Assembly: GCA_964402425.1 (NCBI GenBank)
Contig: CAYOCD010000001.1
Coordinates: 82,934 to 146,933 of the forward strand
Length of the DNA stretch: 64,000 bases
Origin: an uncultured Gammaproteobacteria bacterium
Lineage (GTDB): Bacteria > Patescibacteriota > Patescibacteriia > UBA9934 > GWF2-40-263
Direction of reading: 5' to 3'
The notes under the pieces: model-generated
Told to the model about the DNA's origin: nothing
Seen by the model: only the letters and a program-made list of their open reading frames with translations
Databases searched by the model: none
Part shown: piece by piece, positions 16,503-63,407 of the stretch
Numbering within the stretch: position 1 is the first letter of the stretch
Layout: each line of letters starts with the position of its first letter
Translations under genes and position numbers: made by a program

Positions 16503-16519
16503 ACGTCTAGACCTACTGA

Positions 16520-19920: not shown

Positions 19921-19997
19921 CCCCTCCTCTTTCCCAAAAAAAACGACCCCACCTCAACAAAGAGATAGGGTCAGAAAGTGGGCCGAAATTGGCCGAG

Positions 19998-20963
19998 TTA
20001 CGGGGTGGGGCACGAGGCGCCGGGCTTGGCGACCAGGAAGTACGCCGAGCAGCCGCCGTCCTTGAGGACCGTCTTCACGCTGGACGTATTATACGTCTGG
20101 CCGAACAGCGTGGCCGTAATCGTGGGTTGCGAGTTGAGAACTGCCGTCGAACTTCCCATGCAGAGCCACCCTTGTGGCTGGTCCACATTGAAGCGCAAAT
20201 ACGTGCAGTTGCTCTGAGTGAGATTGCCAAGGTCGACGCTGAGCGATGCATTCATCGTCCAGGCCTGGGGCTTCCAGTCCGTGAACGAGGTATCGGGCGT
20301 AATGCCATAGCTCAAGCGGCGGTAGGCGCTGTCCGGGTACGTCACCGTGAGGGTGTTGTTGCCCGTAGGTGCCGTGCAGCCTTCGTCGATCAGACCGTCG
20401 CAGTCGTTGTCTTTGCTGTCGGCGCAGACTTCCGCGGTTGCTACGCATGGAGCGACGCAACCTTCGTCCGCCTGGCCATCGCAATCGTTGTCCTTGTTGT
20501 CGCCGCAGACCTCATTGGTCGGGACGCACTGTGCGGCACAACCTTCGTCAACCTGCCCGTTGCAGTTGTTGTCGACGTTGTCGCCGCACTTCTCCGGAAC
20601 ACCCGGATTTACGTTGACGTTGTTGTCATTGCAGTCGCCCTGCTTGGGGGCGGTACTGCAGTAGCCATCGCCGTCACCGTCGGTGCAGTTCGTCGAGACA
20701 CACTGTGACTGGTAGTCGTTGCAGCAGTCCTTGTTGACCACACACTCGGCGTCGCATTGACATTGTGCCTTGTTGTTGTACGCCGTGCCACACTTGCCTT
20801 GGCAAGTGGGCGCCGGCGCCGTGTCGGTCGAGTCGCGGCCGGAGGCCGTCGAGTCGACCGAAACGGCCGTGTCGGACTCCTCGTTGATGTCGAACGGCTC
20901 GTGAGAGCCACAGGCCGCCACGATGGCGAGGGAAAGAATCAAACAAGCGGGGATGTAACGCAT
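19998..20963 (-). CDS. Cys/Asp-rich repeat lipoprotein (lipobox IVAAC; repeats CGDNVDNNCNGQVDEGC, CGDNKDNDCDGQADEGC, CADSKDNDCDGLIDEGC).
   Basis: MRYIPACLILSLAIVAACGS. Three near-identical 25-aa repeats in tandem. Confidence 0.6.
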   Translation of the reverse strand: MRYIPACLILSLAIVAACGSHEPFDINEESDTAVSVDSTASGRDSTDTAPAPTCQGKCGTAYNNKAQCQCDAECVVNKDCCNDYQSQCVSTNCTDGDGDGYCSTAPKQGDCNDNNVNVNPGVPEKCGDNVDNNCNGQVDEGCAAQCVPTNEVCGDNKDNDCDGQADEGCVAPCVATAEVCADSKDNDCDGLIDEGCTAPTGNNTLTVTYPDSAYRRLSYGITPDTSFTDWKPQAWTMNASLSVDLGNLTQSNCTYLRFNVDQPQGWLCMGSSTAVLNSQPTITATLFGQTYNTSSVKTVLKDGGCSAYFLVAKPGASCPTP

Positions 20964-21163
20964 GAAACACTCCAGTCGGACGCATGAAGCGCGCGACGTT
21001 CTGTTGCCCGGCCCTGATGCCGGAGCAGTTGCCTGCTTTCACCGAAACCATATCGGCTGCATCAGGACAAACATCGATACAACAATGTTCTATCGATATT
21101 TATCACGACACAATTTATGTAAAATGTACCTTAATGAACGTTGAATAGTATCACAATTCTCTG

Positions 21164-21288
21164 ATTTTGTCAAGGGGAAGGGCTGAAAAGGCGAGAGAGG
21201 CTTGAGATGCTTGAGAGGCTTTAGAAACGCGCTTTCTTCGACATCTCAAACCTCTCAAGCCTTTCTTACAGCCTTCCCCAAAAAAAAC
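21164..21288. repeat. GA-rich palindromic element E with leader TTTTGTCAAGGGG. Core shared with elements D, F and H.
   Basis: ttttgtcaaggggaagggctgaaaaggcgagagaggcttgagatgcttgagaggctttagaaacgcgcttt...acatctcaaacctctcaagcctttc. Confidence 0.7.
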
Positions 21289-21362
21289 AGCTCTCTCAAT
21301 CCATTCCCGAAGGAAATTCATGAGAGAGCCGAGAGGGCCACCAACGTCGCGAGAGTCTGCGA

Positions 21363-28697: not shown

Positions 28698-29088
28698 TGG
28701 TGGAATTGGGGGGAATTGAACCCCCGTCTGATAAGTGTTTTTGAACGGACGTTTGCAAGTTGAGTCTCGCTTGAATAATCCTATGTATTTGAAGCGAGAC
28801 GAAACACACATAAGATCATCGATCGCAATTTTGACACGCAGGAGACCGAACACCCTACGTGCGAGCTCAATAAATATAGCACCCGCATTTCCTTATTGAG
28901 CATCAGGAAGACGGATGGGTTTTACGCAATTAAGCGAAAACCGGAGCGAATGCAGGTGCGCGGAAAGCGTCCTTGATCATCGCCATGACGTTTTTTGCAT
29001 TTGGCGTCTGTGTGATGGATTTATGAGGTATCACACACCCTCAACTTGATCACGAACAAATCGACTCTCATCGATACCGATCAATCCC
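28698..29088 (-). ncRNA. ssrA: tmRNA (ssrA). 5' GGGAUUGAUCGGUAUCGAUG..., 3' ...GGGGGUUCAAUUCCCCCCAAUUCCACCA. The acceptor stem has a G3:U70 pair. Putative tag ORF ends ...AFRAPAFAPVFA-stop (TAA).
   Basis: T-arm and ACCA-3' seen at 28698-28730. Complementary 5' strand found at 29082-29088. UAUCGAUG (UUCGAC-like) element present. smpB lies 1.3 kb away. Tag boundaries uncertain. Confidence 0.55.
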
Positions 29089-34166: not shown

Positions 34167-34244
34167 GGACTGGTGGTGTAGCCCGGTTAACACGTCTCCC
34201 TGTCACGGAGAAGATCGCGGGTTCGAATCCCGTCCGGTCCGCCA
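34167..34244 (+). tRNA. tRNA-Asp (anticodon GTC), CCA encoded.
   Basis: GGACTGGTGGTGTAGCCCGGTTAACACGTCTCCCTGTCACGGAGAAGATCGCGGGTTCGAATCCCGTCCGGTCCGCCA. The 7-bp acceptor stem closes. Anticodon loop CTGTCAC. T-loop GGTTCGAATCC. Confidence 0.85.
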
Positions 34245-45162: not shown

Positions 45163-48100
45163 TTAATTTACGGGACAATAGGTGAATTCAATATTACTCA
45201 GAGTGACAGATGCACTTGTTGGATTCAATTTAACATTAATTGGAAGAGAAAATGGAGCATCCTGACAGATAAACTTGCTTGGAAGTGGCAACTTCAATCC
45301 GTTTCCGATCTCAAGCAAAGAAGTTCCTGTTTGTGGAAGTGTATATTTTCCATTTGCATCTTTAAATGTTGCTGCAATTAACGACACGGTATTTCCAGCA
45401 TTCAAAAGTGAACTTGATGAAGAAACATTTGCCGTAATTCCGACCCCAACTCGGCATGCTGGAAGCAACAAACTTGCACGATCTGGTGTTTTTCCTTCTG
45501 TATTTTCCAAACTAAATAAGGTGATACTGCTTGATGGTTGAGATTCGGCTACATTTCCTTGCACTTGAAGAGCAACTTTTTGGAATGCGGTCGGACAAGA
45601 ACTATTACAACTCGATGAACAAGTTGGCAGTACACATGTTCCTACACCTATACATTTTTCATTATTAGCCGTATTGCAATCACCGTTCCAGTTACAAGTA
45701 CTACCGGATGTTTCACAATATCCATCACAATTATTTTGATAAGCTGCGCATTTTTTTCCATTCTCCCCACGAAGAGAGCCTCCATTACAAGTACCCACAA
45801 TGCGACATGAATACCCCTTATCACAGGAAGTTCCGTGCCACGTTGATGTTGAACCATCATCTTTCTTCCCGTTAGCTGTGCCATCTGAGGTTAGTCCGAC
45901 ATCTTTTGAATCACACGGACCCTTTAGATCCATTTCATCCGCACTGATTGATTTTGTACATGTTCCATTTAACTTCGTACCATCACAATATTCGCCACCA
46001 TTGATTGCTCCATCTCCACAATACGGACCAGATTGTGTTTTGTACTGACAGTATTGATTACAGAAGTTACAGCTTGATCCGTACGCCGCATTACAAGCGA
46101 TTCCGTTTGCCTTACCGCTGTCACACGACTCGATTCCAACGTTTACAAAGTTATCGCCACACACGTTTGTCTTACAGGCGTTTGTACAACTGTCATTGCT
46201 GGAACTGTTTCCGTCATCGCATTCTTCTGTTCCTTCTTTCTTTCCATTACCACATTGTTGTGGACCACCAGCACACGCACCCCATCCACCACCGGCAAGA
46301 TTTGTGATCCACTGACAGCTGTTTGAAGATGGATTGTTGTAATTCTGACAGGTGCGTGTTCTGGTGAGGTCATATTGTTCTGCTGAACATTTTCCACCTG
46401 CCCCACAAGAAGCATCATCTGTACAAATCGCACCAATTGTTGTTCCGGCGGTACAAATCTTTGCTTTTGCACAAGCCGCAACAGGACATCCAGATGAAGC
46501 CGTACATTTTGTTCCATCGTTATTCAATGCACCAGCATACGTTTCTGTATTTCCATCGCATTTTTCTGATGAATCATTAATCAAATTGTCCCCGCACATT
46601 GGTCCTGGAGCTTTACACTCTGCAGTACAATTTTTTCCATCTTTGTCGTAATTTCCGTTATAGGTTGCACAATGATTACCGGACTTTGCCCAACTTGTTC
46701 CCGCAAGTGTCGACCAATTTGATGGCGTTCCGCAATCACATTGTTCATTCCCCGCGAGGTACCCGTCACCACACGCAAAATTAGAAACAACTTTACAATC
46801 TTTACCACAGTGGCCGTACGTACCATTCAGCGCAGTACCATCATCACAGACTTCACCAAGCGCTTTATCAATCACACCATCTCCACAAGAAAATGGCTTA
46901 CATGTTCCACCGGCTTTTTTTGCAGCATCCTCAGCGGCTGCATCTGTTGCATAATTTTTACAATCATTTTTACAAGTAACATTGATGAACCCTGCGTTGT
47001 TTGCGCAAGCAATCGATTTGACTTCACCAATTTCACAATCTTCACCCACACCCTTTACTCCATCACCACAAATCGTAGAGCTTCCAAAAACAGTTGCGTT
47101 GCAATAAGCGGAAGTTGAGACAAATCCTGGCAGGAGATTTGCAGGAGCTTTCCCGTTTAGATAAGCCGCTTTAATGGTCGCTTGATCACCAGATGCGTCT
47201 ATTTTATTGTTCCACGCAACCGTACTGTATTCCAATTCTGTTGTGAGGACATATGCTTCCCCACCAAAATTTTGATATCCGTACACATGAGAACCGTTTG
47301 GACAAAGAGATTTTCCTTGTGCGCTATTCCAACACGTTGCGGAATCATATCCTTCACCTACATTTTTACACTGTCCCCAGAATTGGTTGAGCGGATCTGT
47401 TGGCAGAGCACCCCCAACCTCATTTCCAAGCGTACTGTTCCAAGATGGCCAGATACTGTTACTTACAGAAGGAACAAACGTTCCTGCTTGAATAGTTGGA
47501 TAGCTCGGGATACATGTTTCTGTTCCTGGACAAGCAGAATTCGCTCCTGTACCCGCTTTACTGTTTTGAGAAACAACACAGGCTTGACTCTTGGTTACCG
47601 CACAACGACCGTTTGTGTTTCCGTATTTTTCAAATGTGGTCACCATCTCTGTGACATCTGTCAATCGTTTTGTGTCTCTGATCAATTTTTGTTTGTCTGC
47701 ATCACAGAACATGTTTGGATCAGCTACTGCACATTCCGCATTTCCTAATTTTGGATTACAAACTTTATCCGAAACGGAACATTTTCCATCTGGCTTACAT
47801 TGATCCAAACAGTCTCCATCCCATGAACATGTGGTAAACGGACCACTTGGTGGAACATAGGCACTTCCACTCTTACAAAGACCAACGTGCGACACTCCAG
47901 TTACACCAGTATCATTCGCGTTTAATCGGAAATTTTGTAAGACAAGATCAAAAATCTGTTGCGCATCTTTTCCGGCATCTGCGTTAAATGAGATAACGTA
48001 AATATTTGAATAGAGATTTGATCCGTTGCGATTTGCCGCTGCTGCATAAATCGTTGTTCCTGTTTGCACAGCTTCATATCCATCCAACTTGGCCGCCTTT

Positions 48101-51100
48101 GGTATTCCAGTAAATCCCTGTGATTTAAACCAAGCCATTGGTGACAGATAATTTGGATTTGAGAGAACACGCACTCCAATAGAGTCTTTTGTTCCAGAAA
48201 CGCGGAACACTAATTCTTTCAAGACATCTGTTGTAATGAGTTGATTTACATCTGGTGTTGCATCTGTTGGAGGAAGTTCAAGAGCAGGCAGCTTCTTTCC
48301 TTCTTCTGGTTTTCCAACATCTCGACAATAGAATAAGGAGAAGTTTGTGTTCGCTCCATTTTCAACAAATGGAACCCCGTGTGCCAAATCCGGCCATGGA
48401 TTTTCACACAAGAACGCAACCTCTGACACATGACCAGATACAGCCGAACCAACCGTTGATTTTGCACTTATTGTATCTGCAGAGATTGTTGCGGTTGCAA
48501 TAACATTTCCTGAACCGTTCTTTCCAAGGGCTTTATATTGCGCTGTTTGTGCGATGCTTGGTCCAACAATTCCTAAAATATCCATTTTAGTTGCCGTATC
48601 TTTCACGTTTGCAGCCCAGACCCACGTCCAAGCGTATACACCTGAAATTGAAGAGATTTCTTCAAGTGTTCCTGTGTTTTTGCGATAAGAAAACGGCTTT
48701 GTTGTAAATGCGTGGACTTCATTTGTCTTAGAATAATATCCGGGGCTCTTTGAGAGATACGAAGGTGGAGTTGGGGTGATTCCACCATCTGTTGTTTCCA
48801 CAACGTCAAGCAAACAAACATCCGCACCGGTTGTGAAAGTACTTGAGAGAGAAACAACGGAGCAAGTTGTGCCATTGTCACCAAGACAAACACTGACCTT
48901 GTTTTTACTAAGAACTCCCTTTGACGTTTCTCCGTTTTTTGTTTTTACCGTCAATTTATATTGCGCATTTGGAAGTAATTGTTCTGTGTAACGAAGATAA
49001 ACTTGATGTGTACCTGGGTCTTGTTCAAACGAAACAGGAACAAAACATTGCGTGGTTGCATTTGCCATGGCAGATTGCCCAAAAGCATCTTTAACCCAAT
49101 TCCAAACAAAAGAGAAAATATTTTTTGCACGCATGAATCCAACAGGCTTTGGATAATACGGACAGTTAACTGCTGTTACAGCCTCATTGATACCTAAACT
49201 ATTTTTCTTCGTAATCAGCTCAAGCTGAAGATTTGGATCTGTTTCTGCCGCACTTAATTTTCCATCTCCGTCAGTATCTACGGAACCAAACGTACTCGCA
49301 TCCATTTCTTGATCAAACGCAATGGAAATAGCCGTATTGCGACAAATGTTTGTTGCATTATTTCCAGGAACCATCGCTGTAATCGTTGGGCGCTCAAAAC
49401 AACACTTTTCCACACCGCAACCAAGCGATTTTGAAGATTCCCCTGTTTTTGTTCCACACTGATTATCGGAAGCACAGGAACAAAGCAATTTCACTTCGCC
49501 TGTACCTGTCTTTCCTCCAACGGAGACCTGTACATTTGAAACAGCATATCCGTATGTTGCTTTTTTCTCATCTTTTTCTACCTCAAGCGACGCTCCACTT
49601 GAAACTTCTGCAACACCATAAGCACCAACGGTATATGTTGCGGAAGCAGCTGCTTCACACTGCTCGCCCGGTTCAAGAGCTCCCCCATTTCCACAAACAG
49701 AAGGGATAGCATAATTTGGATTTGAACCCATCTTTAAACAACTCTTTGAACATCCAGGAGCGATAGATCCAACACCAAGATCACATCCTGCATCTTCCCC
49801 GGAATCTGTAACACCGTTTCCACAGACAAATTTTGCTGGATCTTTTCCAGGACTTGTTCCGCGATTCAAACAAAGATCTGTACAAGCCACTGTGGTACGA
49901 ACCTCACATTTTGAACCATCCTGACACGCTGCACCACCAATGGTACAGACAGCCCCATCCGCACAATGCGTTCCTGGATCACATGTCTCTCCAACACTAG
50001 CAATTCCATCTCCACAACGTGCATTTGAATACGCAACAACACCTCCTTCAAACAAACAATTTGAGGAACATCCATCTCCTTCTTTTATGTTTCCGTCATC
50101 ACAGGCTTCCCCACCATTTGTCTTTGAGTTATCAGCAACTCCGTCTCCACAAATAGATTTAATAGAGGAAACCCCTTCAAACAAACACTTTGCAGAACAT
50201 CCATCTCCACCCAAAACTTTTCCATCATCACATTGTTCACCCGCATCCACAACGTTATTTCCACACGTTGGAGCAACCGTTCCTTCTTTCAAACAACTTG
50301 ATGAACAGCCGTCTTTGTCATTTGTGTTTCCATCATCACAAGACTCCCCGTAATTTACTGCCCCATTTCCACAAACAGCTTGTCCGACTTTGATTGGGTT
50401 TCCTGTATACAAACAGTTTCCTCCACACATTTTTGGGAGTGTGTTTGTAAGAGCAAGCGAACCATTATTCAACAAAAACGCAGTGATCTCATTGTATTTA
50501 TGATCTGCTCCTATTACATACGATGCTGCACCGATCTTGTTTGGTGTATCTGTTGCACCCCATCCACCCCATCCACTTGCTTGCAAGGCTTGCCCTGTTA
50601 CAGAACATTCGTCCGGAGCTCCATATGCAATCGCGTTGTATTCTTGACGTTGACCAACATATTTAAGTATTGCCGACTTTGGAGAAAGCCCAACACGATC
50701 AACGGCACATGAGGTGAGCGAATCTTTTGACTTAAATTTCCAAGAAAACGCACCTGGATAAAATTTATTTTCAGGAGTTCCGTAATTAGATCCAGATTCT
50801 GAAAGAGATGAGGACACACTCGATTTAATCCAATCTGCGACAACAACTCGATACCACGTATTTGACACAAACGCAGCGCCATCTGTCACAATTGATGCTC
50901 GATATGTTGCAGAATCATATATGACACTCGTAACATGATTCCATGCGGTCAACTGACTCTTTTCACAAAGGGCATTTTCACATTGAAAAATACGAATTGC
51001 ACCCGCAATATTAAAGACAGCTGGATTCATTGGAACATTAAATGAAACCCACGGCTTCACGTTTGCACATGCGGCAGAACAGTTTGGAAAATAATCACTT

Positions 51101-54100
51101 ACTTTTGGTGTTGCAAGCGCGATGGTCAGAAGTCCTTTATTCGTTGGTTTATTTCCAACATCCGTAACCGTTGCACTAATTTCTGCAGGGATTCCAATAG
51201 GGGTGTTATAAAGAGGATTGACATTTACGGTACAAACACCGGCTGCAGGATTACTTGTTAATGTGTCACCCGGTAGGAATTTTGCTGCCTGTTGTGAAGA
51301 ACTCCAACTTACCGAATGTCCAGCACACGCAAGCACAACACACTTGTCTTTGTTTGAAAGTAATTGTGCAAGATATCCAACAGCATCTCCGGCATTTTTT
51401 GCCGTGAACGTTGCTGGAGAAACACTCACTCCACCAACACCACATGGCGCATTTGAGGAGGATGTTCTGAATTCCCAAGAATAATCTTTTGCCATGGAAG
51501 CACCCGAAACAAGTCCATTCACCTTAGATTTTACCCCACCCCCAGGAGCAGATGCCCCTTTGATGGTAACGCGATGCAAAGTACTTGTATCAAAATGATT
51601 ATTTGGAGACCATTGAAATGTATATTCACCTGGTGTCTGAAAAGAACCTGGCACCACTTGCCAATCTGCTGCTACACATGTTCCATTTACCTCTTTGGCT
51701 ATTGGACATTTTTCTATAACGATATTTGTGTTTCCGATACCGATCGTTGCAGGATCCATTGGAACCGCAAACGAAGCTGTCACTGCAGCTGAAACACAGA
51801 TATCATTTTGCGTACTCCAAAGTGGTGATGGGGATGGTGATGGCTTTGGAAATTTTGGATCCGCACAATTCACAACAACCGTTGGCGCAACAGGAATTGG
51901 GCTCGTTGAAACCTTGTAAACAAATTGAGAAAATTTCGGCCCATCGCTTGGACAGGCTTGGCCTACAAGTGAACACGAGCCATCTCCACAGCATGCCTGA
52001 CCAGCCGTACAGAGACTTGGAGTTTGCAGACAATTTCCAACCGCAAAATTTACCGAGTTTGATTGTTTCAGCGCAGCATCTACCACATAAACAGGACCTG
52101 ACTTTGTTCCAACAGGAACGCTCGCTGATCCGATTTCAGTTCCTGTCCAGGAACCAGGATCTTCGGAAAGATTTGTTGTAAACACAACCGCTCCTTTTTG
52201 ATCTCCAAAATTTTCTCCAAAAATATCAATCGATGTTCCGGCAGGACCCGCGTTTTTGCTTAAAAGACAAATTCCTGGTGTTGGTTTTCCATCCACAACG
52301 GTAAATGGTTTTGCATCAGAAGCATTTCCGGTCTGAGGCACAACACTCACTTCATAATTACCAGGTTTGATAGGACTCTTATCTAGATTAAATGGAACTT
52401 TTACCGTAACCGAATTAGTGTGCCAAAAAAGATCTCCACAAGCTTTTGGGAACTCTACATTTCCGTTTATAACCTCATTTGAAGTAAGATTTTTAAATTT
52501 AACGTATCCTGTAGATGACCCAAAATTGGATCCATAAATGGTTACATATTGTCCAGAAGGACCCCATGCTGACTGCGATTTACAAGAACCAGCTACGCCA
52601 CCACAATCCTTATCCGTAGAACAATATTGATTTGCTATCGCTCCTCCATTACAGACTTTCCAACCTGTATCAATTGTAGCGATCGTTGCTTTTTCTACAT
52701 TTGGTGTGTTTGTTGCAACAAATTTCTTTGTATTAGAACCAACGCGAACATCCATACATGTTCCACCCGCAGCTCCACAAGCCGTATTATCCTGACAATA
52801 TTGAAGCGTCTCAGAACACCAGGACATTCCACACTTATATGCTGCATCTACTTTTGTACAATCCGCATTTGAAAAACAAGAAAGCGCTGGACTCACTTTT
52901 GCCCCACTCGCATTCAAACAGAAATAATCACCTGTAAAAACTTGGGCATTATACGTTCCGCTTGCAACTCCTGGTACATTTCCTTTCAATTCCGTCGCTC
53001 CCCACAAAGAAGGCGTCAACTGAAAATTTGAAAGATAAACAGAAGACGAACCTTGTCCAGCACCAAACGCAAGACCAGTCAGAGTAATTAACGTATTCAC
53101 TTCCGCAGCTGGTGTAATCGAACACAAACCAGGGCGCTTAATTGCGTTTACATCAAATTTAGATATGACGGGTCCAACAGCATCATCAGTTCTTTCTGAC
53201 TGTGCTGCTGCCCCCAGAGCACCTGCTGGAATATTGATTTTTAACGGACCATCAATAGCACCAGCCGGTACTTTCACAACAATTTCCTTTTCTTTCCAAG
53301 AAGAAGTTCCGCCACACTGGAATGCGTTTGCCACTTTTGTCGTTCCATCTTTTTCTGCTCCAAGAAATTCAACCGTACCGGGCGTTGTCCCAAATCCAGA
53401 ACCTGTAATCGTGATTAAGTTTTCTACAGCACCATTGTCTGGAGAGATAGATTGAATAACAGGGACATCCTGACATCTTCCTGCAATACAAAACCCAGAA
53501 GAACATTGTGCATTACTCGTACACGCAGACGGCTTACAGAGCCCGCAAAAATATTCGCTTGTTGCGTCTCCACCACAATCACACGCATCACCAACTGCAC
53601 ATGTTCCCGTTTCTCCATACGGAGCACTTGCATCTTGCGTGCCATTGTCACAGTTTGGCGCACGAAGCATGACAGAAACTTTTCTGGAAATTTGTGTAGA
53701 TCCCGCACAATCAGTAGCCATTGCCCAAACGGCATATGACTTATTTGCAACAAATCCAACCGGAGTCCATTCTCCATTAAAAAATGCTGTTGTGAGTCCA
53801 TTTAATGCCGTAGGATTCACCGCAATAGAAGATGTATCAACAGAAGTTTCTCCGTCTGCAGCAAAAAATTCAACACTGGCCACTCCTGTATCATCAACCG
53901 TTCTTACTTGAAGTGGTTTGCTTAATCCCAAAATAGCTTTTGCTCCAGCTTGTGGTTCTACAAACGAAACTTCTTGAGGTGGTTTTGTGTCCACAACAGA
54001 GCCTGTTGTGAAATCAAACGAACAAGGATTCACTCCCCCCTCCGTCTTACAAGTAAGCGTTGCACCGCTTGCTGATTTAACTTGTGCAGGATCTACCTCA

Positions 54101-54816
54101 ACATGAAATGCGGCGTTTGGTGCAAAACAAGACAAAGATTCATTTGGAGTCGGACATTTTTCTTCTGGCGTGAACATGACTTTTCTGCCAGAAAACGTAA
54201 AAGACCCGGGAACATCCACCCCGTCTCTTGTGATCTTTATTCCCTTTTCATCTTTCACGGATTTTGAAAAAACAAGGGATAATTTAAGGTTACGAACACC
54301 CGCAGCACATTGGATAATGGACGTTGGCGGATTTAATGAGAATACAGGAGTTGGTGACGGAAACGGTGAAGTTTTTAAACAAGATAGATCTGTAGGATTT
54401 TTTTTACAAAACGCAATAATATCTGCATTCGATGTTGCTCCCACCAACTTTGAAATGACGAATTGTGCAATCGCAAACGATGACAAAACAATCACAAGAC
54501 CGATTAAACCGTTTTTAATGGAGTTCTTTGCTTTTTTGAGACGATCTTCGTTTCCACCCGCCGTCATGTACATGAATCCTCCGTACAGAACAATCATGAC
54601 CGCAATAATTCCAAGAAACGAAATGACTGTGCGAATCAAACGCGCAATAATGACGGTAATGGAAGGCCCTGTTGAAAACCCCGCGTTGGCCGCAAAAGAA
54701 GCAAACGCATCTGGATCTACAGGACTTGCAGCGAGGATTGGTTGAGCAAAAAAGATTCCCGTGCAAAGGAGAACGGTTAGAATAAACATCGATTGAAGCA
54801 ATCTGCGGAGGTTCAT
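45163..54816 (-). CDS. Giant (3217 aa) cysteine-rich cell-surface protein. N-terminal signal peptide plus two-helix membrane hairpin domain, SbsA-type Ig-like / beta-rich regions, and at least 10 Myxococcus-type cysteine-rich repeats (CGNGxxxxGExCDDGNxxxGDGCSxxC).
   Basis: Single uninterrupted ORF. N-terminus MNLRRLLQSMFILTVLLCTGIFFAQPILAAS...IIARLIRTVISFLGIIAVMIVLYGGFMYMTAGGNEDRLKKAKNSIKNGLIGLVIVLSSFAIAQFVI. Repeats such as CGNGAVNYGESCDDGNTNDKDGCSSSCLKEG, CGNNVVDAGEQCDDGKVLGGDGCSAKCLFEG and CGDGAINGGEYCDG. Confidence 0.7.
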   Translation of the reverse strand: MNLRRLLQSMFILTVLLCTGIFFAQPILAASPVDPDAFASFAANAGFSTGPSITVIIARLIRTVISFLGIIAVMIVLYGGFMYMTAGGNEDRLKKAKNSIKNGLIGLVIVLSSFAIAQFVISKLVGATSNADIIAFCKKNPTDLSCLKTSPFPSPTPVFSLNPPTSIIQCAAGVRNLKLSLVFSKSVKDEKGIKITRDGVDVPGSFTFSGRKVMFTPEEKCPTPNESLSCFAPNAAFHVEVDPAQVKSASGATLTCKTEGGVNPCSFDFTTGSVVDTKPPQEVSFVEPQAGAKAILGLSKPLQVRTVDDTGVASVEFFAADGETSVDTSSIAVNPTALNGLTTAFFNGEWTPVGFVANKSYAVWAMATDCAGSTQISRKVSVMLRAPNCDNGTQDASAPYGETGTCAVGDACDCGGDATSEYFCGLCKPSACTSNAQCSSGFCIAGRCQDVPVIQSISPDNGAVENLITITGSGFGTTPGTVEFLGAEKDGTTKVANAFQCGGTSSWKEKEIVVKVPAGAIDGPLKINIPAGALGAAAQSERTDDAVGPVISKFDVNAIKRPGLCSITPAAEVNTLITLTGLAFGAGQGSSSVYLSNFQLTPSLWGATELKGNVPGVASGTYNAQVFTGDYFCLNASGAKVSPALSCFSNADCTKVDAAYKCGMSWCSETLQYCQDNTACGAAGGTCMDVRVGSNTKKFVATNTPNVEKATIATIDTGWKVCNGGAIANQYCSTDKDCGGVAGSCKSQSAWGPSGQYVTIYGSNFGSSTGYVKFKNLTSNEVINGNVEFPKACGDLFWHTNSVTVKVPFNLDKSPIKPGNYEVSVVPQTGNASDAKPFTVVDGKPTPGICLLSKNAGPAGTSIDIFGENFGDQKGAVVFTTNLSEDPGSWTGTEIGSASVPVGTKSGPVYVVDAALKQSNSVNFAVGNCLQTPSLCTAGQACCGDGSCSLVGQACPSDGPKFSQFVYKVSTSPIPVAPTVVVNCADPKFPKPSPSPSPLWSTQNDICVSAAVTASFAVPMDPATIGIGNTNIVIEKCPIAKEVNGTCVAADWQVVPGSFQTPGEYTFQWSPNNHFDTSTLHRVTIKGASAPGGGVKSKVNGLVSGASMAKDYSWEFRTSSSNAPCGVGGVSVSPATFTAKNAGDAVGYLAQLLSNKDKCVVLACAGHSVSWSSSQQAAKFLPGDTLTSNPAAGVCTVNVNPLYNTPIGIPAEISATVTDVGNKPTNKGLLTIALATPKVSDYFPNCSAACANVKPWVSFNVPMNPAVFNIAGAIRIFQCENALCEKSQLTAWNHVTSVIYDSATYRASIVTDGAAFVSNTWYRVVVADWIKSSVSSSLSESGSNYGTPENKFYPGAFSWKFKSKDSLTSCAVDRVGLSPKSAILKYVGQRQEYNAIAYGAPDECSVTGQALQASGWGGWGATDTPNKIGAASYVIGADHKYNEITAFLLNNGSLALTNTLPKMCGGNCLYTGNPIKVGQAVCGNGAVNYGESCDDGNTNDKDGCSSSCLKEGTVAPTCGNNVVDAGEQCDDGKVLGGDGCSAKCLFEGVSSIKSICGDGVADNSKTNGGEACDDGNIKEGDGCSSNCLFEGGVVAYSNARCGDGIASVGETCDPGTHCADGAVCTIGGAACQDGSKCEVRTTVACTDLCLNRGTSPGKDPAKFVCGNGVTDSGEDAGCDLGVGSIAPGCSKSCLKMGSNPNYAIPSVCGNGGALEPGEQCEAAASATYTVGAYGVAEVSSGASLEVEKDEKKATYGYAVSNVQVSVGGKTGTGEVKLLCSCASDNQCGTKTGESSKSLGCGVEKCCFERPTITAMVPGNNATNICRNTAISIAFDQEMDASTFGSVDTDGDGKLSAAETDPNLQLELITKKNSLGINEAVTAVNCPYYPKPVGFMRAKNIFSFVWNWVKDAFGQSAMANATTQCFVPVSFEQDPGTHQVYLRYTEQLLPNAQYKLTVKTKNGETSKGVLSKNKVSVCLGDNGTTCSVVSLSSTFTTGADVCLLDVVETTDGGITPTPPSYLSKSPGYYSKTNEVHAFTTKPFSYRKNTGTLEEISSISGVYAWTWVWAANVKDTATKMDILGIVGPSIAQTAQYKALGKNGSGNVIATATISADTISAKSTVGSAVSGHVSEVAFLCENPWPDLAHGVPFVENGANTNFSLFYCRDVGKPEEGKKLPALELPPTDATPDVNQLITTDVLKELVFRVSGTKDSIGVRVLSNPNYLSPMAWFKSQGFTGIPKAAKLDGYEAVQTGTTIYAAAANRNGSNLYSNIYVISFNADAGKDAQQIFDLVLQNFRLNANDTGVTGVSHVGLCKSGSAYVPPSGPFTTCSWDGDCLDQCKPDGKCSVSDKVCNPKLGNAECAVADPNMFCDADKQKLIRDTKRLTDVTEMVTTFEKYGNTNGRCAVTKSQACVVSQNSKAGTGANSACPGTETCIPSYPTIQAGTFVPSVSNSIWPSWNSTLGNEVGGALPTDPLNQFWGQCKNVGEGYDSATCWNSAQGKSLCPNGSHVYGYQNFGGEAYVLTTELEYSTVAWNNKIDASGDQATIKAAYLNGKAPANLLPGFVSTSAYCNATVFGSSTICGDGVKGVGEDCEIGEVKSIACANNAGFINVTCKNDCKNYATDAAAEDAAKKAGGTCKPFSCGDGVIDKALGEVCDDGTALNGTYGHCGKDCKVVSNFACGDGYLAGNEQCDCGTPSNWSTLAGTSWAKSGNHCATYNGNYDKDGKNCTAECKAPGPMCGDNLINDSSEKCDGNTETYAGALNNDGTKCTASSGCPVAACAKAKICTAGTTIGAICTDDASCGAGGKCSAEQYDLTRTRTCQNYNNPSSNSCQWITNLAGGGWGACAGGPQQCGNGKKEGTEECDDGNSSSNDSCTNACKTNVCGDNFVNVGIESCDSGKANGIACNAAYGSSCNFCNQYCQYKTQSGPYCGDGAINGGEYCDGTKLNGTCTKSISADEMDLKGPCDSKDVGLTSDGTANGKKDDGSTSTWHGTSCDKGYSCRIVGTCNGGSLRGENGKKCAAYQNNCDGYCETSGSTCNWNGDCNTANNEKCIGVGTCVLPTCSSSCNSSCPTAFQKVALQVQGNVAESQPSSSITLFSLENTEGKTPDRASLLLPACRVGVGITANVSSSSSLLNAGNTVSLIAATFKDANGKYTLPQTGTSLLEIGNGLKLPLPSKFICQDAPFSLPINVKLNPTSASVTLSNIEFTYCPVN

Positions 54817-56809: not shown

Positions 56810-56946
56810 GAGTAAGGCTATAAAGGCAATAGAGGCTTGAGATGCCGAAGGGAACAAAAAAAAGAACGCGGTCAACGCGTTCTTTATTTTCTTGTTTCTT
56901 TTTTTCGGCATCTCAAGCCTCTCCAGCATCTCTCGCCTCTCTAGCT
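56810..56946. repeat. GA-rich palindromic element H: 16-bp perfect inverted repeat GAGGCTTGAGATGCCG/CGGCATCTCAAGCCTC plus CTCTCGCCTCTC arm. Loop carries the hairpin GAACGCGGTCAACGCGTTC. Abuts the stop of the yqeY-fusion gene.
   Basis: Seen in sequence between 56737 and 56941. Confidence 0.7.
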
Positions 56947-58119: not shown

Positions 58120-58650
58120 TTAGCGAGATGCTGTAATCGTTGTGGTTGTAGCAGCTTCAGATTCACAGGCTGTAACGGTTGCGATTCCATTTGAATCAAC
58201 GGAGAGTGCGTATCCTGTTCCTTTTGAGGATCCGCTATCCCAAGTTGTTGCACCTTTTGGACTAATTGGAACGCTCTTCAAGTATCCTCCCGAAACAAGA
58301 CCAGTCAAATCTACACAGTTACCGGTTGCTGCGATTGTTGCGTCACATGTTGAATTACAACCAGACGCCATCGGTTCTCCTGTAATCATGTAATTTGTTC
58401 CGGCTGTTAATGCTGCAACAGAAGCAAGATACGATCCCCCATTATCAACTTGCTGCAATTTAATAGCCGATAAAACTTCTTGCACGGCATTTTGTCTCAC
58501 AGAATCACGAGCTTGTTGAAAACGTGCTGCTGGATTTAACGCCACAAAAATAACCCCGACCAAAACTCCCACAATAGCAATAACAACAAGAAGCTCGATT
58601 AAGGTAAACCCTTCATTTGAACGCATGACGGACACTTTTTGAGTATTCAT
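58120..58650 (-). CDS. Type IV pilin / pseudopilin (class III signal, N-methylation motif).
   Basis: SNEGFTLIELLVVIAIVGVLVGVIFVAL matches G|FTLIEL with E+5. Confidence 0.75.
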   Translation of the reverse strand: MNTQKVSVMRSNEGFTLIELLVVIAIVGVLVGVIFVALNPAARFQQARDSVRQNAVQEVLSAIKLQQVDNGGSYLASVAALTAGTNYMITGEPMASGCNSTCDATIAATGNCVDLTGLVSGGYLKSVPISPKGATTWDSGSSKGTGYALSVDSNGIATVTACESEAATTTTITASR

Positions 58651-59642
58651 ACTGACACATTAAAAAAATTATGTTGAGAGATATATGTATGAGGCTGCGC
58701 CGCACGAAGCCCCGCACCAATGGACGCCGCAAAAATCTGACATTCGGTTTTTTTCATTTTTGAATGTTTTAACAAGTCTCCTGCGTATGAGGGAGAAATC
58801 TGCGGAAGACGTGTTTTGATTGCTTGAACCATGTTTGCCGTCCGCGCCTCTGTTCCGGCAAGCAAAAACAGATTCACAAAATAATTCTGCGACTGGAAGT
58901 ATAACACGGCTCCTTCTGTTATCCCAATCAAACTATCCACAATCTCATCCAAAAGCTCACCCGGAATATTTGCAGAAATGTTCTGTTGTTTATAAGAAAT
59001 TGTACGAGAAAATAGACGCGATCCGTTTTGTGTACAAAATGAAAGTGTAGCCCATGCATGTCCAATATCTAAAACGCCGTCACACATTTTTTGATCACGT
59101 TTTTTGACAGCCGTTTTCTGAAACACGTGCTTTAAACGAAAAATAGATTGGATATTTGATTCAATCGCCATGAGATGCAACCCAGTTTCAACAAAACTTG
59201 TTTCAATCCCCTGAACAACAGGTGCATCAACAGCATAAACGGTTGTCTGTACCTCTTGCGATTCTTTTTCTCCAAACGAAACATCTATACGAGCAGATTC
59301 AAAATTCAACGGAATTTCTTTTTGCGCACGCACGTGCGCCAACTCTTCCAACTCTTCTTTTTTTAATGTGGCATCTGATAAAAACGAATGAGAAAATACG
59401 CGCGATTCTGGAATCAAACAAACCGTGCGCATGTGCTTTGTTGAAAGCCCCATTTCAGATACGGTTTTTTTCACAATAGCCTGAAAGGCTTTTGTATCCA
59501 CAATCTGTTCATCAAGCACAATCCCTTCATCTAAAACAACTTCCTTACACTGAAGAACATGACCAAAAAGACCAACATGTGCAAAACGCACATGGTGTTC
59601 GGAAAAATCAATGCCTATTCCTGAAAAATATTTTTCAAACAT
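58647..59642 (-). CDS. PilM-like type IV pilus assembly protein (actin-like fold, no TM).
   Basis: N-terminal GIGIDFSEHHVRFAHV resembles the PilM/FtsA phosphate-1 motif. 331 aa. Embedded among pilin genes with 4-nt overlaps. Confidence 0.4.
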   Translation of the reverse strand: MFEKYFSGIGIDFSEHHVRFAHVGLFGHVLQCKEVVLDEGIVLDEQIVDTKAFQAIVKKTVSEMGLSTKHMRTVCLIPESRVFSHSFLSDATLKKEELEELAHVRAQKEIPLNFESARIDVSFGEKESQEVQTTVYAVDAPVVQGIETSFVETGLHLMAIESNIQSIFRLKHVFQKTAVKKRDQKMCDGVLDIGHAWATLSFCTQNGSRLFSRTISYKQQNISANIPGELLDEIVDSLIGITEGAVLYFQSQNYFVNLFLLAGTEARTANMVQAIKTRLPQISPSYAGDLLKHSKMKKTECQIFAASIGAGLRAAQPHTYISQHNFFNVSV

Positions 59643-59645
59643 ACG

Positions 59646-60047
59646 TTAATCAACTTCTTGCCAACTCGTTAATGTAACAAGCGAACCTGATTTTACAAGA
59701 GTTGTTTGCAAACGCCGCGTATATGGCCCTGTAACGGATGAAATATTTACCGTACAGCTCCCGCAAGGAGTTCCCTGAACCACAATTGTACAAACAGCAT
59801 TTCCAACAGGAAGAGTGCCGCCATTATAACTTGCATTTCGTTTAATGCGAAGGATGGCTTCTTCTGCACAACTCTCGGCAGACATAATCGATTCAGTACT
59901 TCGCCATTCAGAATACCCTGTCTCTAAATCATCCACTCCAAAAAACATCACTCCACCCAACATCAGTGAAATAATAGCAAGAACAATCATCACAACAATG
60001 AGTCCAGCTGATCCAGTTTGATTAGAGCGAAGAGATGACAACATACT
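59646..60047 (-). CDS. Pilin-like protein with a degenerate prepilin signal (NQTGSAGLIVVMIVLAIISL; lacks F+1 and E+5). Likely start MLSSLRSNQ at 60047.
   Basis: The listed ORF 59646..60140 overlaps the upstream gene by 94 nt. The internal ATG at 60047 removes the overlap and yields a leader paralogous to MRNQKGFTLFE of the neighbour. Confidence 0.4.
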   Translation of the reverse strand, partial: SMLSSLRSNQTGSAGLIVVMIVLAIISLMLGGVMFFGVDDLETGYSEWRSTESIMSAESCAEEAILRIKRNASYNGGTLPVGNAVCTIVVQGTPCGSCTVNISSVTGPYTRRLQTTLVKSGSLVTLTSWQEVD

Positions 60048-60568
60048 CAAGGGAGAGGTGGAATGCGAAATGAGGACTGAAATGATTTTGTTGCAGAATA
60101 AAAGGGGGTATTCGATGGGTTGAGCGTAGATAAATCCCATTCTGCCCGTACAACCCCTTTATCTTTTACTGTTGTAAGATTTGTAAACACAAGATTTGTC
60201 ACAGAAATCTTTGCGGTTGTTAGAGAAACAAACGCACCCCCTTGTTCACTCACTTCAAGTGTGCCGTTATCTTGATTAAGCCTGAATACGGTTGGATTTT
60301 TAAGAGGGTCAATCATTTCAAGCGAAAGAACACCTGGATCCGTCCCAAAAACAGAAGATCCAACTTGGATGGATTTTGCATGGCGCACAGCGTCTGAAAG
60401 ACGTTCTTCAAACAAACGTGAGGAATGCATAATTTCTGATTGTGCTTGGATTTTTACTCGTGCATTCATGAGCTGCATGACAAAGGAAGATAGGGTTACC
60501 AAAATAAACCCAATGAGGGATACGTATAAAATGGCTTCAAATAATGTAAACCCTTTTTGATTACGCAT
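60047..60568 (-). CDS. Type IV pseudopilin (prepilin motif KGFTLFEAILYVSLIG).
   Basis: MRNQKG|FTLFE with E+5. Confidence 0.7.
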   Translation of the reverse strand: MRNQKGFTLFEAILYVSLIGFILVTLSSFVMQLMNARVKIQAQSEIMHSSRLFEERLSDAVRHAKSIQVGSSVFGTDPGVLSLEMIDPLKNPTVFRLNQDNGTLEVSEQGGAFVSLTTAKISVTNLVFTNLTTVKDKGVVRAEWDLSTLNPSNTPFYSATKSFQSSFRIPPLP

Positions 60569-60569
60569 A

Positions 60570-63407
60570 TTACGGAGAATAAGAGGCGCTCACATCTAAC
60601 AGACTTGGTGCGTTTGATCCATCACCAGATAAAATAGCCTGAAATTGGATCCAGCGTTTTCCTGTTGCCGCAGGGTCTGTCACCACAGCTGTTCCTGAAA
60701 CGGTATAATGTGAGGCAGATGTTCCGAGTGGACCAACCCATTTTGCTGTTTGAAGATTCGCTTCTGAATCCGCTGTCCGGATCATGAACTCAACCGTTCC
60801 CGTTCCAGACGTGGTCCATTCAAGCGAATCCCATGTAGCAACAGACGTTGCATCATACGCCTGAGAAGTAAAAATAGCTTCATGTGCATAATTTGGAAGT
60901 GTGAGGGGTCCCAAAATCTGAAGTGTTTGTGTTGTACTAGATGTAACCACGAAAACAGTTGATCCTTTATCGATAATTTCAACCCCACTTGATCCTAAAT
61001 TTTCTATTGAAACAAGAAGGGGGCTTGCGGGATTTGAAATATCCCATCGTTGATACTGTGCACCTGTTTGTGCCGTTGCTACCTGTAACGCACTACTATC
61101 TGTTTGCGAAAGTCCGACAACATCCCCTGTCGTTTGTGCTGATCCAAGCAAAGAAGGAGTCGCAGAGGTAATGTTCAACAGCGAAATCTCTGGATCCGTA
61201 CCATTTAATCGTCCCAAAGCAAGCGTAGAAGAATAAATCGAAATAGCCGCACCATCTTGGTTTCCAGAAGCATTATAAAGGGAAAGTACGGAGGGTGCGG
61301 AAGGTGTCGCAATATTTACAATGGCTATTTCCCCTGAATTGTTTGTAGATGCAGCATATAATCTTGTGGAATAAATACCGAGATCTAAGATATTTCCTGT
61401 TAAGTTCACACTCCCAATAACAGATGGCGTAGCTGGGTTTGTGATATTCACAACATACATCTCTGGACTTGAACTTGTATTGACCCCCACATACAAGTTT
61501 GTTCCTGATAAAGCCAGAGCGTTAGCCGCTTGTGAACCGGAAAGATTAACGCTTGATATCAGTGTTGGTGCCGCCTTATTTGTGATATTCAAAATTCTCA
61601 CTTCAGAAGATGTATTTGCTGTTGCAAGATAGGCATAATTTCCGCTTACAATAATACGATTAACCGATGATCCAACCAGATACGACCCAACATACGTCGG
61701 CGTGCTTGGATTTGAGATATTATAAATCGTAAATTCAGGTTTTGAACTTCCCGATGTTGTTCCAACGTATGCGTAAATACCATCCACAAACAAAGCAGAA
61801 CCTGGGCGAGGATTACTTTGGTTTATTGTGCTCGACACCTGCGGATTACTCCACCCTGCGTTTATCACGCCATACACAAGTATTTCCGAACTGTTGTCAT
61901 CGCTTCCGAAATAAACATTTGTTCCGTAAATAGCCGCAACTTTTCCACCTCCGGCAACCGAAGCATCTATTGTCTGATAAAGAGCGAGGGTTGCAGGATC
62001 CACAAGCACAAGTTCATTTGTCAAACCACTCGTTGCAAGCGCAAGGGTTGTTTTTTGTTTATTAAAGGATATTTTATTTACAGATGAACCAAGCTCAAGT
62101 CCACTCAATGTTGGCATACCGTTTTCAGGCATAGAGCCATCCAATCGCACAAATTCAACACCCGCCCCAGACGCACGACCAACAAAGATCGTCGTTCCAT
62201 CTACGGCAACAGAAAGAGCGTCTGTTGCCGTAGGCATATCAAGCGTATTCAAAATCGACATTGTTAATGCCTGTATCGCTGTAAGCTCTGCCGAATTTGC
62301 ATTTGATACAACAAAGACATGTTGATGATTCAATGCAATACTCGTTACATCATATCCAAGCTCCGTACTTCCAATAAGCGCAGGAGTGACTGGATTTGTT
62401 ATGTCATAATAAAACACCTCTTGTGTACTCACACTGCTCATACGCCCAATCACGAGCCAGTTTCCATTCAGAGCTAAAGCTGTTGCCTTTGCATTTTGCG
62501 GAAGATCGATCGTTGCGACCGTAGCCATGGTAAATAAATCCACGACCACAATTTCCGCTCCTTCTGAACCATCATCATCCGCTGACACAATGACATAATC
62601 CCCTTTGACAACAAAACTTGTTCCTTGCGTTATGTTTTTTCCTCGTAACAAGACAGGTGCTGCATTTGAAATATTTGAAGCATCATAAACCTGCAGTTCA
62701 TTTCCAGTAGTTGAGTCTTGTAATGTAATGAGTACATTATGCGATTCATCAAAAAACATGTCGATCATGTCACCAGATCCATTTGCGTTTATACCGAATC
62801 GTGATCCTATGCTATTCCAGTTTGCACTTGCCGGAGCAAGAGTCACCTCCCCTCCGGAAATTGTTGTTGCGACAGAACCGTTATTGATTCCCGCGCTAAA
62901 ATCTGCAAGGAGTGTTTGTACCCACGCCAAAGAAGTCCAGTTTGTAATGTAAAAAACGGAAGTCAAACTTTTTACCTTTGATGCAAACAGTGTCCAAATA
63001 ACGTTGATAGATACTTTTTTTGTTTTTGTATCCAAAACACCCGTAGGGGCGATGTCCCCCGTTAAACTTCCGTTTCTATAAACATCCTCAACCATCACCG
63101 TTCGTGTAAATCCACCAGGTAAAGATTCAGACGTGCCGCTAAATTCAAATTTGGATCCGTTTGTTGTGAGTCCATGTGCACCATTTGTGACATTTGCCCA
63201 TGCTTGATCACGAATAGATCTCACAGCTTCCAACCCTTCCCCCATGTACCCACGCGCAACAATATAATCACCCCCCTGTTTTGAGGAATGCAATCCGGAA
63301 AGAAGCGTGGAAACAATTCCTGTTCCGATAACCGCAAAAAGACCGGTGATCAAAATGATCTCGATCATGGACTCTCCTTTTTGATTATTCAATCTTGCCC
63401 GCAGCAT
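60570..63407 (-). CDS. Large pilin-like protein (945 aa): prepilin N-terminus (NNQKG|ESMIEIILITGLFAVIG) fused to a beta-propeller of at least 8 LVIVD-like repeats. Candidate pilus tip adhesin.
   Basis: Repeats YDITNPVTPALIGSTELG, VNITNPATPSVIGSVNLTGN, VNIATPSAPSVLSLYNASGN, LNITNKAAPTLISSVNLSGS, YNISNPSTPTYVGSYLVGSS, WDISNPASPLLVSIENLGSS, each followed by YA..A or VAT hydrophobic strands. Confidence 0.6.
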   Translation of the reverse strand: MLRARLNNQKGESMIEIILITGLFAVIGTGIVSTLLSGLHSSKQGGDYIVARGYMGEGLEAVRSIRDQAWANVTNGAHGLTTNGSKFEFSGTSESLPGGFTRTVMVEDVYRNGSLTGDIAPTGVLDTKTKKVSINVIWTLFASKVKSLTSVFYITNWTSLAWVQTLLADFSAGINNGSVATTISGGEVTLAPASANWNSIGSRFGINANGSGDMIDMFFDESHNVLITLQDSTTGNELQVYDASNISNAAPVLLRGKNITQGTSFVVKGDYVIVSADDDGSEGAEIVVVDLFTMATVATIDLPQNAKATALALNGNWLVIGRMSSVSTQEVFYYDITNPVTPALIGSTELGYDVTSIALNHQHVFVVSNANSAELTAIQALTMSILNTLDMPTATDALSVAVDGTTIFVGRASGAGVEFVRLDGSMPENGMPTLSGLELGSSVNKISFNKQKTTLALATSGLTNELVLVDPATLALYQTIDASVAGGGKVAAIYGTNVYFGSDDNSSEILVYGVINAGWSNPQVSSTINQSNPRPGSALFVDGIYAYVGTTSGSSKPEFTIYNISNPSTPTYVGSYLVGSSVNRIIVSGNYAYLATANTSSEVRILNITNKAAPTLISSVNLSGSQAANALALSGTNLYVGVNTSSSPEMYVVNITNPATPSVIGSVNLTGNILDLGIYSTRLYAASTNNSGEIAIVNIATPSAPSVLSLYNASGNQDGAAISIYSSTLALGRLNGTDPEISLLNITSATPSLLGSAQTTGDVVGLSQTDSSALQVATAQTGAQYQRWDISNPASPLLVSIENLGSSGVEIIDKGSTVFVVTSSTTQTLQILGPLTLPNYAHEAIFTSQAYDATSVATWDSLEWTTSGTGTVEFMIRTADSEANLQTAKWVGPLGTSASHYTVSGTAVVTDPAATGKRWIQFQAILSGDGSNAPSLLDVSASYSP

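Follow-up and report, generated by a model that had tools for sequence, protein, structure and literature searches.

In the 64-kb window, that is, the whole stretch of DNA analysed here, one ATG-initiated open reading frame (ORF) of 3,217 codons plus stop (9.65 kb) is located at 45163..54816 on the minus strand. Its product, called the giant protein below, seems on balance to be a membrane-anchored attachment fibre composed of a stalk and a tip; this is the reading that we favour, with restrained confidence. The predicted architecture resembles that of adhesins: an anchor, a long stalk of immunoglobulin-like (Ig-like), TIG, and Cys-repeat domains, and a distal domain of the binding type. The original prediction was an adhesin or S-layer-like factor for attachment to a host or prey. 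The adhesin part is supported by the adhesin-like architecture and by an insert in distant relatives that matches VWA domains; the attachment role, and a host or prey cell as its target, are what we infer from them. Attachment to other cells is the presumed way of life of Patescibacteria, and to our knowledge their contact molecules are not known outside Saccharibacteria. The gene cassette described here would be a concrete candidate for such contact machinery, in the form of a 340-kDa surface fibre on a conjugation-type pilin module. The giant protein thus offers a defined target for proteomics, for labelling in cryo-electron tomography, and for recombinant binding work on the tip and the central module.

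In the proposed mechanism, the giant protein would be exported by the Sec pathway, followed by cleavage of the signal peptide. The pilin module, having two helices and a basic cytoplasmic loop in the predicted topology, would keep the protein in the cytoplasmic membrane, and the ~3,085 residues past this module would project outside the cell. Passages of a survey of Patescibacteria (PMC12102498) describe these bacteria as thought to lack an outer membrane, so that the ectodomain would face the medium. By sequence and models, the ectodomain is a non-repetitive chain of Ig-like, TIG, and Big_5 domains, two Cys arrays, a head-like module of 587 residues, and a β-sandwich of the carbohydrate-binding-module (CBM) type. 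The giant protein probably works with a 636-residue pilin-fusion paralogue and three single-pass membrane proteins, encoded together in a five-gene cassette that is fixed in the Uhrbacteria chromosome. The stalk would hold the binding domains away from the tiny cell, so as to grip a partner cell or a polysaccharide surface.

The hydropathy profile of the giant protein contains a signal-like segment (aa 5-33) and two hydrophobic helices (aa 52-88 and 99-127), which are connected by the basic loop TAGGNEDRLKKAKNS. The scan found no further hydrophobic segment in the remaining ~3,090 residues. This means that the N-terminal anchoring by a two-helix domain, as proposed originally, is correct. However, the domain is not a generic one. 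The T4SS_pilin family PF18895 matches aa 53-120 with a marginal score (28.5 bits; cut-off 26.6). Residues 15-131 were aligned by BLASTP with residues 16-134 of a free-standing Patescibacteria pilin of 135 aa (P0238) at 54% identity (E 4e-38), and P0238 stops where the extension of the giant protein starts. Because P0238 is aligned end to end and terminates at this point, aa 15-131 are a complete VirB2-like pilin, to which a C-terminal extension of ~3,085 residues is attached.

Searching with the hairpin alone gave 127 matches. The 120 listed are small pilins (all E<=8e-14): all are short, mostly 105-170 aa, with identities of up to 64%, and nearly all carry PF18895. The N-terminal 131 residues behave as a full-length homologue of such small pilins (52-64% identity to others of 120-150 aa), and the hairpin is 47% identical to that of the 636-aa neighbour, which occupies aa 35-130 there. 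No match was obtained when the hairpin alone was searched against PDB sequences. When compared with conjugative VirB2/TrbC pilins, the signal peptide, two helices, and short basic loop are all present (cleavage and topology are predicted), whereas the length of 3,217 aa exceeds their small size (roughly 70-150 aa), and no type IV secretion system (T4SS) cluster with virB4 accompanies the gene within the window. The extracytoplasmic location claimed for the protein agrees with the PF18895 module, the hydropathy, and the P0238 alignment. It should be mentioned that the survey of T4SSs in Patescibacteria, in the passages used here, counts PF18895 matches as VirB2-like pilins (PMC12102498). In these genomes the PF18895 "pilin" matches include anchors of giant proteins, which affects the counting of T4SS pilin repertoires. 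Arrays of 5-6 PF18895 pilin genes were observed directly after an SBP_bac_1 gene in two unrelated groundwater contigs (L068, 8846-11664; L069, 8878-11237), and VirB4 is not present within ±10 kb of them.

The stalk begins with two Ig-like domains, of which the first and its counterpart in the 636-aa neighbour, likewise the first Ig-like domain there, are paralogues. In the TIG-like region, the TIG family matches the isolated segment at 66.9 bits in three stretches and the whole protein at 50.2 bits (cut-off 20.9). The family profile matches domain D of cyclodextrin glucanotransferase here, and a variable Cys-rich insert is present at aa ~630-745. One weak TIG match was the only result of the PDB sequence search with the whole protein. 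The following segment, aa 928-1480, has no Pfam match. Big_5 (PF13205) scores 43.9 bits (cut-off 23.6); its best stretch, aa 1809-1845, spans ISIAFDQEMDASTF (aa 1830-1843), so that the SbsA-type signature quoted originally does sit inside an Ig-like domain. In the NCBIfam scan, the disulfide repeat TIGR02232 (myxo_disulf_rpt) scores 88.2 bits (cut-off 20.8) in four stretches, the best being aa 1516-1547. The two families that had been named by accession for checking, TIGR02232 and PF13205, are, in other words, above their cut-offs. DUF4215 also matches, at 33 bits (cut-off 27) on the whole protein and at 43.6 and 33.7 bits on segments. Tandem Ig-like or β-sandwich domains, as in the stalks of fibrillar adhesins, are thus represented by TIG, Big_5, and Big_7 matches and by an Ig-like domain in the first structural model. 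The second AlphaFold2 model is elongated, with a pTM of 0.44 and locally good pLDDT. Roughly estimated, a fully stretched chain with so many domains might be about 100 nm long.

Thirteen repeat units open with CG[DN][GN]...E.C[DE]: six occur between aa 1482 and 1750 and the other seven between aa 2583 and 2960. Of the 13, 4-5 also have the motif's second half, (G/x)DGCSxxC. Accordingly, the claim of at least 10 repeats of CGNGxxxxGExCDDGNxxxGDGCSxxC holds for the first half of the motif and fails for the whole. The AlphaFold2 model of array II (aa 2583-2960) consists mainly of coil and short strands, with a pLDDT of ~65-88. As in Myxococcus-type TIGR02232/DUF4215 proteins, the units are numerous and the hidden Markov model scores exceed the curated cut-offs; the differences are that the repeats make up about 20% of the giant protein and that the organism is a Patescibacterium, not a myxobacterium.

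The giant protein contains 171 Cys (5.3%), fewer than the several hundred that had been stated; the richness in Gly (10.8%), Ser (9.5%), and Thr (8.2%) was described properly. Apart from the Cys and repeat numbers, which were overstated, the observation behind the original prediction was essentially right, and its interpretation is supported in part. Among 57 homologues, Cys is conserved at >=80% in 126 of the 171 positions, and the mean identity is 0.83 at Cys as against 0.35 at other residues. Since the Cys residues are conserved and an even number of them, 170, lies beyond residue 125, they likely form structural disulfides that stabilise the protein.

The central module of 587 aa was modelled confidently. 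It consists of an Ig-like domain, a subdomain similar to Mog1/PsbP/LpqN, and a Cys-bearing α/β part that has no solved counterpart; matches to solved structures cover only two parts of ~100-150 residues each, the Ig-like and the Mog1/PsbP-like ones. Residues 2201-2300 within it are the best-conserved non-Cys block of the giant protein. A profile of the module, searched against 1.84 billion representative proteins, gave 1,775 matches at E<=1e-3 and 1,307 at E<=1e-30. The best 150 are nearly all either proteins of 3-4 thousand residues, in which the module lies at about aa 1,750-2,650, or shorter fragment-like sequences. These matches constitute a large coherent family of giant proteins. A fold search of the module against the viral structures of BFVD gave nothing meaningful (TM<0.2). 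This module, well modelled and mostly without a solved counterpart, is a suitable target for recombinant study.

Segment-wise structure prediction, which had been proposed as a check, thus gave a confident central module, and it gave an elongated second model ending in a C-terminal sandwich of the CBM type. Conservation of the giant protein is lowest in the tip segment (0.30 bits per residue). Fifty more distant relatives in the alignment carry an insert of ~260 aa in the tip sandwich, whereas it is absent from the window protein and from the seven relatives closest to it. The insert site corresponds to 45274-45423 (aa 3131-3180), where the insert carriers have a median of 307 residues and the window protein has 50. 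A D.[ST]GS motif, similar to that of the metal ion-dependent adhesion site, is found in about half of the 50 carriers, and many have a Pfam VWA match. P0026 is one relative with a VWA-bearing tip. When the family profile of the insert was compared with the PDB, it matched VWA domains of the sortase-pilus tip adhesins SpaC (E 9e-9), GBS104, and RrgA, as well as those of PilB (7b7p) and Mfa5 and integrin I domains. The insert of the more distant relatives appears to be a VWA domain where detectable, and it was lost by a clade-specific deletion in the subclade of the window protein. Subclades with and without this insert provide a natural comparison.

In a few distant loci, among them L063 (labelled Kerfeldbacteria) and L066, a single protein of 2,215-2,256 aa with PF18895, TIG, and Big_5 is found. 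These proteins have no DUF4215, the central module is near the C-terminus, and the genes of the TSP3 and PsbP-like partners and ybeY..ftsZ come after them. Because these distant proteins end near the central module, it is suggested that this module is the ancestral distal head and that Cys-array II and the tip were added as a later extension.

The giant gene is separated by 10 nt from the stop of the 636-aa gene and by 4 nt from the start of the 267-aa gene. A terminator-like hairpin is found only upstream of the 636-aa gene, and it is the probable upstream limit of the transcription unit; the giant gene is probably co-transcribed with the 636-, 267-, 210-, and 331-aa genes. The order yqeY - 636 - giant - 267 - 210 - 331 - ybeY - dgkA - ftsA - ftsZ is kept in relatives at 63, 40, 37, and 33% identity. 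Sixty-six related loci, many of them truncated, were compared by tblastn, and each gene of the cassette and its flanks was detected in 41-60 of them. In 49 loci, the median identity of the best high-scoring segment pair was 31-42% for the ectodomain segments and 50% for the pilin module, as compared with 44-53% for YqeY, YbeY, and DgkA and 70% for FtsA and FtsZ. The giant gene is thus a core gene of the lineage, syntenic and collinear, and not a variable accessory factor.

The ORF is by far the longest in the window, the next having 945 codons, as had been noted. Its GC content at third codon positions (GC3) is 0.28, against 0.28-0.40 in most neighbours; the composition is native, and horizontal acquisition was rejected on this ground. 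A protein identical to it (P0001, NCBI; 100%) is annotated from a start 9 codons downstream and has 3,208 aa. With that start, the signal peptide would lose its basic n-region MNLRRLLQS (54790-54816), and for this reason the longer ATG start looks more plausible. An assembly artefact or a pseudogene, arising from collapsed repeats or fused ORFs, might be considered, since the protein does contain repeats and the source genome is of the metagenome type. However, DNA repeats within the ORF are no more than 75% identical over 73 nt, 57 homologues of 3.06-3.74 thousand residues from independent assemblies align collinearly with the giant protein from end to end and agree with it in length and domain order, and the NCBI copy is identical. 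Such an origin can hardly be credited, and mis-assembly is very unlikely. As judged from these data rather than from reads, no frameshift or mis-assembly of the kind that would break the ORF is indicated.

More than 55 homologues were found, with query coverages of about 70-100%, and those with names are almost all from Candidatus Uhrbacteria, of the class ABY1. In genome collections, the probe was matched best by Uhrbacteria RIFOXYB2_FULL_45_11, at 91% across it, and by RIFCSPLOWO2_01_FULL_47_17, at 88%. Table S1 of PMC12102498 lists Uhrbacteria assemblies of about 0.8-1.2 Mb that have about 740-1,080 coding sequences. At this genome size the giant gene amounts to roughly 1% of the genome, which bears out the description of it as a major investment in a compact genome. 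Many cassette-bearing species-representative contigs are titled "uncultured Gammaproteobacteria" (TPA_asm metagenome-assembled genomes, MAGs), and one "Bdellovibrionales" (L009, L010, L013, L020, L027, L036-L040, L043, L044, L048, L051-L053, L055, L056, L059, L064, and L065). These titles look wrong, because the compared loci show the Uhrbacteria-type gene order.

Among known systems, the giant protein seems closest in its working to the fibrillar adhesins of monoderm bacteria. Both are very large, both combine an anchor, a long Ig-like (TIG, Big_5) stalk, and, at least putatively in the giant protein, a distal domain of the binding type, and both are encoded by the largest gene of a small genome. 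A giant Ig-repeat adhesin of Mobiluncus mulieris, for example, has 7,651 aa (PMC10619420). The known surface anchors of this class are lacking, and the pilin hairpin takes their place: the giant protein is anchored N-terminally, whereas fibrillar adhesins have a C-terminal LPXTG/sortase signal, and the C-terminus ...FTYCPVN contains no such motif. By Pfam, NCBIfam, and reading of the C-terminus, there is no LPXTG motif, no retention module of type I secretion system (T1SS) adhesins, and no autotransporter barrel; a sortase or T1SS adhesin was rejected on this basis. In addition, the stalk is not made of near-identical repeats, it is probably stabilised by ~85 disulfides and not by isopeptide or ester bonds, the gene is collinear and syntenic throughout the class and not strain-variable, and the window protein has no VWA insert. 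What is new here is a giant adhesin-like surface protein whose pilin anchor is unusual and whose operon is conserved, from a family undescribed in the literature searched.

The adhesive modules of the modular type IV pilins PilB and PilC have a few hundred residues. In these proteins of Streptococcus sanguinis (PMC8179133, PMC9934059), an N-terminal pilin is likewise followed by a C-terminal adhesive module (vWA or lectin). They differ from the giant protein in having a class III signal and an N-methylated α1 helix, whereas the pilin of the giant protein is of the VirB2/TrbC type, and its extension has ~3,085 aa. The small PF18895 pilins and their arrays (PMC12102498; PMC10633639) differ in size, ~130 aa against 3,217 aa, and in location: the giant gene is in a separate five-gene cassette by the cell-division genes, not in an array or with virB4.

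Several points weigh against an attachment fibre. The disulfide bonding and the topology of the giant protein are deduced; the window protein lacks the VWA insert, which is the clearest adhesin signature of the family; searches of the literature on giant or Cys-rich proteins in Uhrbacteria and the candidate phyla radiation gave no description of the family; and the strict collinearity, the class-wide synteny by ftsA/ftsZ, and the neighbour-like divergence fit a housekeeping envelope structure as well or better. Such a structure, built by the giant protein together with its four partners, might be a constitutive scaffold, an S-layer-like layer, or a spacer of the monoderm cell, in which the Ca2+-binding TSP3 proteins would act as membrane-side connectors. 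We regard this as rather unlikely. It is a serious alternative, given the housekeeping-like behaviour of the locus: in most of the 66 loci it forms a syntenic core element just upstream of ybeY-dgkA-ftsA-ftsZ, its architecture is collinear and non-variable with conserved Cys, and its divergence is close to that of ordinary neighbours. On the other hand, Pfam scans of the giant protein detected no SLH or other known domain for S-layer anchoring or lattice formation, and the Ig-like matches are generic. A length of 3,217 aa is far above the typical size of S-layer subunits; it is several times that of S-layer proteins with SbsA-type Big_5, from which the membrane hairpin anchor also distinguishes it. 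The C-terminal insert of distant relatives, moreover, matches VWA domains of the tip-adhesin type. A secreted enzyme or toxin carrier, in which the central module or the Cys-rich regions would act on host cell walls, is highly improbable. The 587 aa of highly conserved sequence lack a family assignment, and giant genes of ultra-small or predatory bacteria (Omnitrophota) have been linked to cell-wall degradation (bioRxiv 10.1101/2023.11.21.568195). However, Pfam, NCBIfam, PADLOC, and structure comparison gave no enzyme or toxin signature, and no catalytic family was found by the first three; the PADLOC scan of the central module, which is weak as a test, had no match. The PDB sequence profile matches were TIG and VWA only.

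The other alternative, an unlikely one in our estimation, is that the giant protein is a modular VirB2-type pilin: the modules of the giant and 636-aa proteins would leave the membrane and co-polymerise with small PF18895 pilins, thereby displaying the 3,085-aa extension. This is compatible with an adhesive role. The pilin is complete (54% identity to aa 16-134 of P0238), and for each of the two closest small pilins that were looked up, the gene is one of 5-6 in a tandem array. In Ca. Southlakia, arrays predicted to encode pilins are essential (PMC10633639). VirB4 is listed for 10 of 16 Uhrbacteria assemblies, including the closest relative RIFOXYB2_FULL_45_11, among the 16 of ~94 Uhrbacteria rows of Table S1 of PMC12102498 that were counted. 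There is also a precedent in type IV pili for the fusion of a pilin with an adhesive module (PilB, PMC8179133), and the VWA profile of the family matches PilB (7b7p). In contrast, no VirB4/T4SS ATPase match was found among window ORFs of >=500 aa, nor any other T4SS component among the ORFs scanned. The compared cassette flanks of four relatives have no T4SS genes, and the 10 kb on either side of the small-pilin arrays likewise showed no T4SS component. Two cassette-bearing assemblies, both incomplete MAGs, are listed without VirB4 in the same table (PMC12102498); VirB4 may be encoded elsewhere in the genome. No PF18895 protein is known to polymerise. In addition, a helical filament could hardly accommodate a 340-kDa extension on each subunit, so that the giant pilin could only be a rare or tip subunit. 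If this alternative is true, the giant and 636-aa proteins would be the first recognised modular VirB2-type pilins, and a relaxase-less T4SS-like apparatus of episymbionts would present a disulfide-rich arm of ~3,000 residues to the host. Some "VirB2 pilins" in Patescibacteria surveys may then be anchors of giant surface proteins. Targeted term searches of the text of the T4SS survey (PMC12102498) gave no mention of giant pilin fusions.

Table 1. Features of the giant protein and of its gene cassette. Positions are those of the window.
Feature	Residues	Window position	Strand	Basis or remarks
Signal peptide, Sec-type	aa 1-29	54730..54816	-	Sequence (MNLRRLLQS n-region, hydrophobic core, ..PILA/AS, the slash being the predicted cleavage site) and hydropathy
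VirB2/TrbC-like pilin module	aa 30-131	54424..54729	-	PF18895, BLASTP, hydropathy
Two Ig-like domains (weak Big_5 and Big_7 matches)	aa 160-387	53656..54339	-	Pfam
Cys-rich knot, 9 Cys	aa 388-450	53467..53655	-	Cys count, alignment
Four IPT/TIG-like units	aa 451-927	52036..53466	-	Motifs ITITGSGFG, ITLTGLAFG, VTIYGSNFG, IDIFGENFG
Cys-rich linker, then β-rich region with Big_5-like "MDP" signatures	aa 928-1480	50377..52035	-	Sequence
Cys-repeat array I	aa 1481-1800	49417..50376	-	Six units, from aa 1482, 1518, 1556, 1601, 1665, 1708
Big_5 (SbsA-type) Ig-like domain with ISIAFDQEMDASTF	aa 1801-1995	48832..49416	-	Pfam
Conserved central module, 587 aa	aa 1996-2582	47071..48831	-	
Cys-repeat array II	aa 2583-2960	45937..47070	-	Seven units, from aa 2583, 2644, 2682, 2741, 2855, 2886, 2933
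Variable, insertion-prone Cys-rich segment	aa 2961-3071	45604..45936	-	Alignment; lowest pLDDT of the second model
C-terminal β-sandwich, CBM type	aa 3072-3217	45166..45603	-	Model
Upstream partner, 636 aa		54827..56737	-	Signal peptide, VirB2-like pilin module, Big_5 domains, Cys-rich C-terminus
Downstream partner 1, 267 aa		44355..45158	-	One transmembrane helix, 12-Cys ectodomain, marginal C-terminal TSP3 (E 0.0012, below the Pfam cut-off)
Downstream partner 2, 210 aa		43667..44299	-	One transmembrane helix, Ca-binding TSP3 repeats (significant)
Downstream partner 3, 331 aa		42657..43652	-	One transmembrane helix, marginal TSP3 (24.6 bits, cut-off 25), weak PsbP-like C-terminal domain
Terminator-like hairpin between yqeY and the 636-aa gene		56861..56885	-	Consensus match only

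Type IV pilus-like genes are located just upstream of the cassette region (58120-63407, minus strand), with PilM_2 at 58647-59642 and N_methyl prepilins at 58120-58650 and 60047-60568. Beyond the prepilins, a 945-aa LVIVD/β-propeller protein is encoded at 60570-63407 (minus strand). An ECF-type (extracytoplasmic function) sigma factor adjoins a DUF5667 protein (1918-3365, minus strand, and 3844-7704). Beside this pair are a 674-aa protein with GHL15 and FG-GAP and a 609-aa DUF11 protein, both of which may be further surface proteins.

The region 13987-22901 is an island of foreign composition, with a GC of 0.54-0.63 and a GC3 of 0.56-0.79, as against a GC3 of about 0.28-0.40 in most other genes. 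Among its products are Cys-rich proteins with Cu-binding_MopE repeats, 812, 542, and 321 aa long, of which the 321-aa one also has Somatomedin_B, and it contains two ORFs without Pfam matches. The island is flanked by Wzy_C/GT4 polysaccharide genes and a Wzz-like gene, and it appears to represent a second set of surface proteins rich in Cys, acquired recently. rRNA as an explanation for the high GC at 14-24 kb was rejected, since there was no Rfam match. The only Rfam/ARAGORN matches in the window are a tRNA-Asp(GTC) at 34167-34244 and a tmRNA at 28698-29088 (minus strand), whose tag peptide is AKNVMAMIKDAFRAPAFAPVFA.

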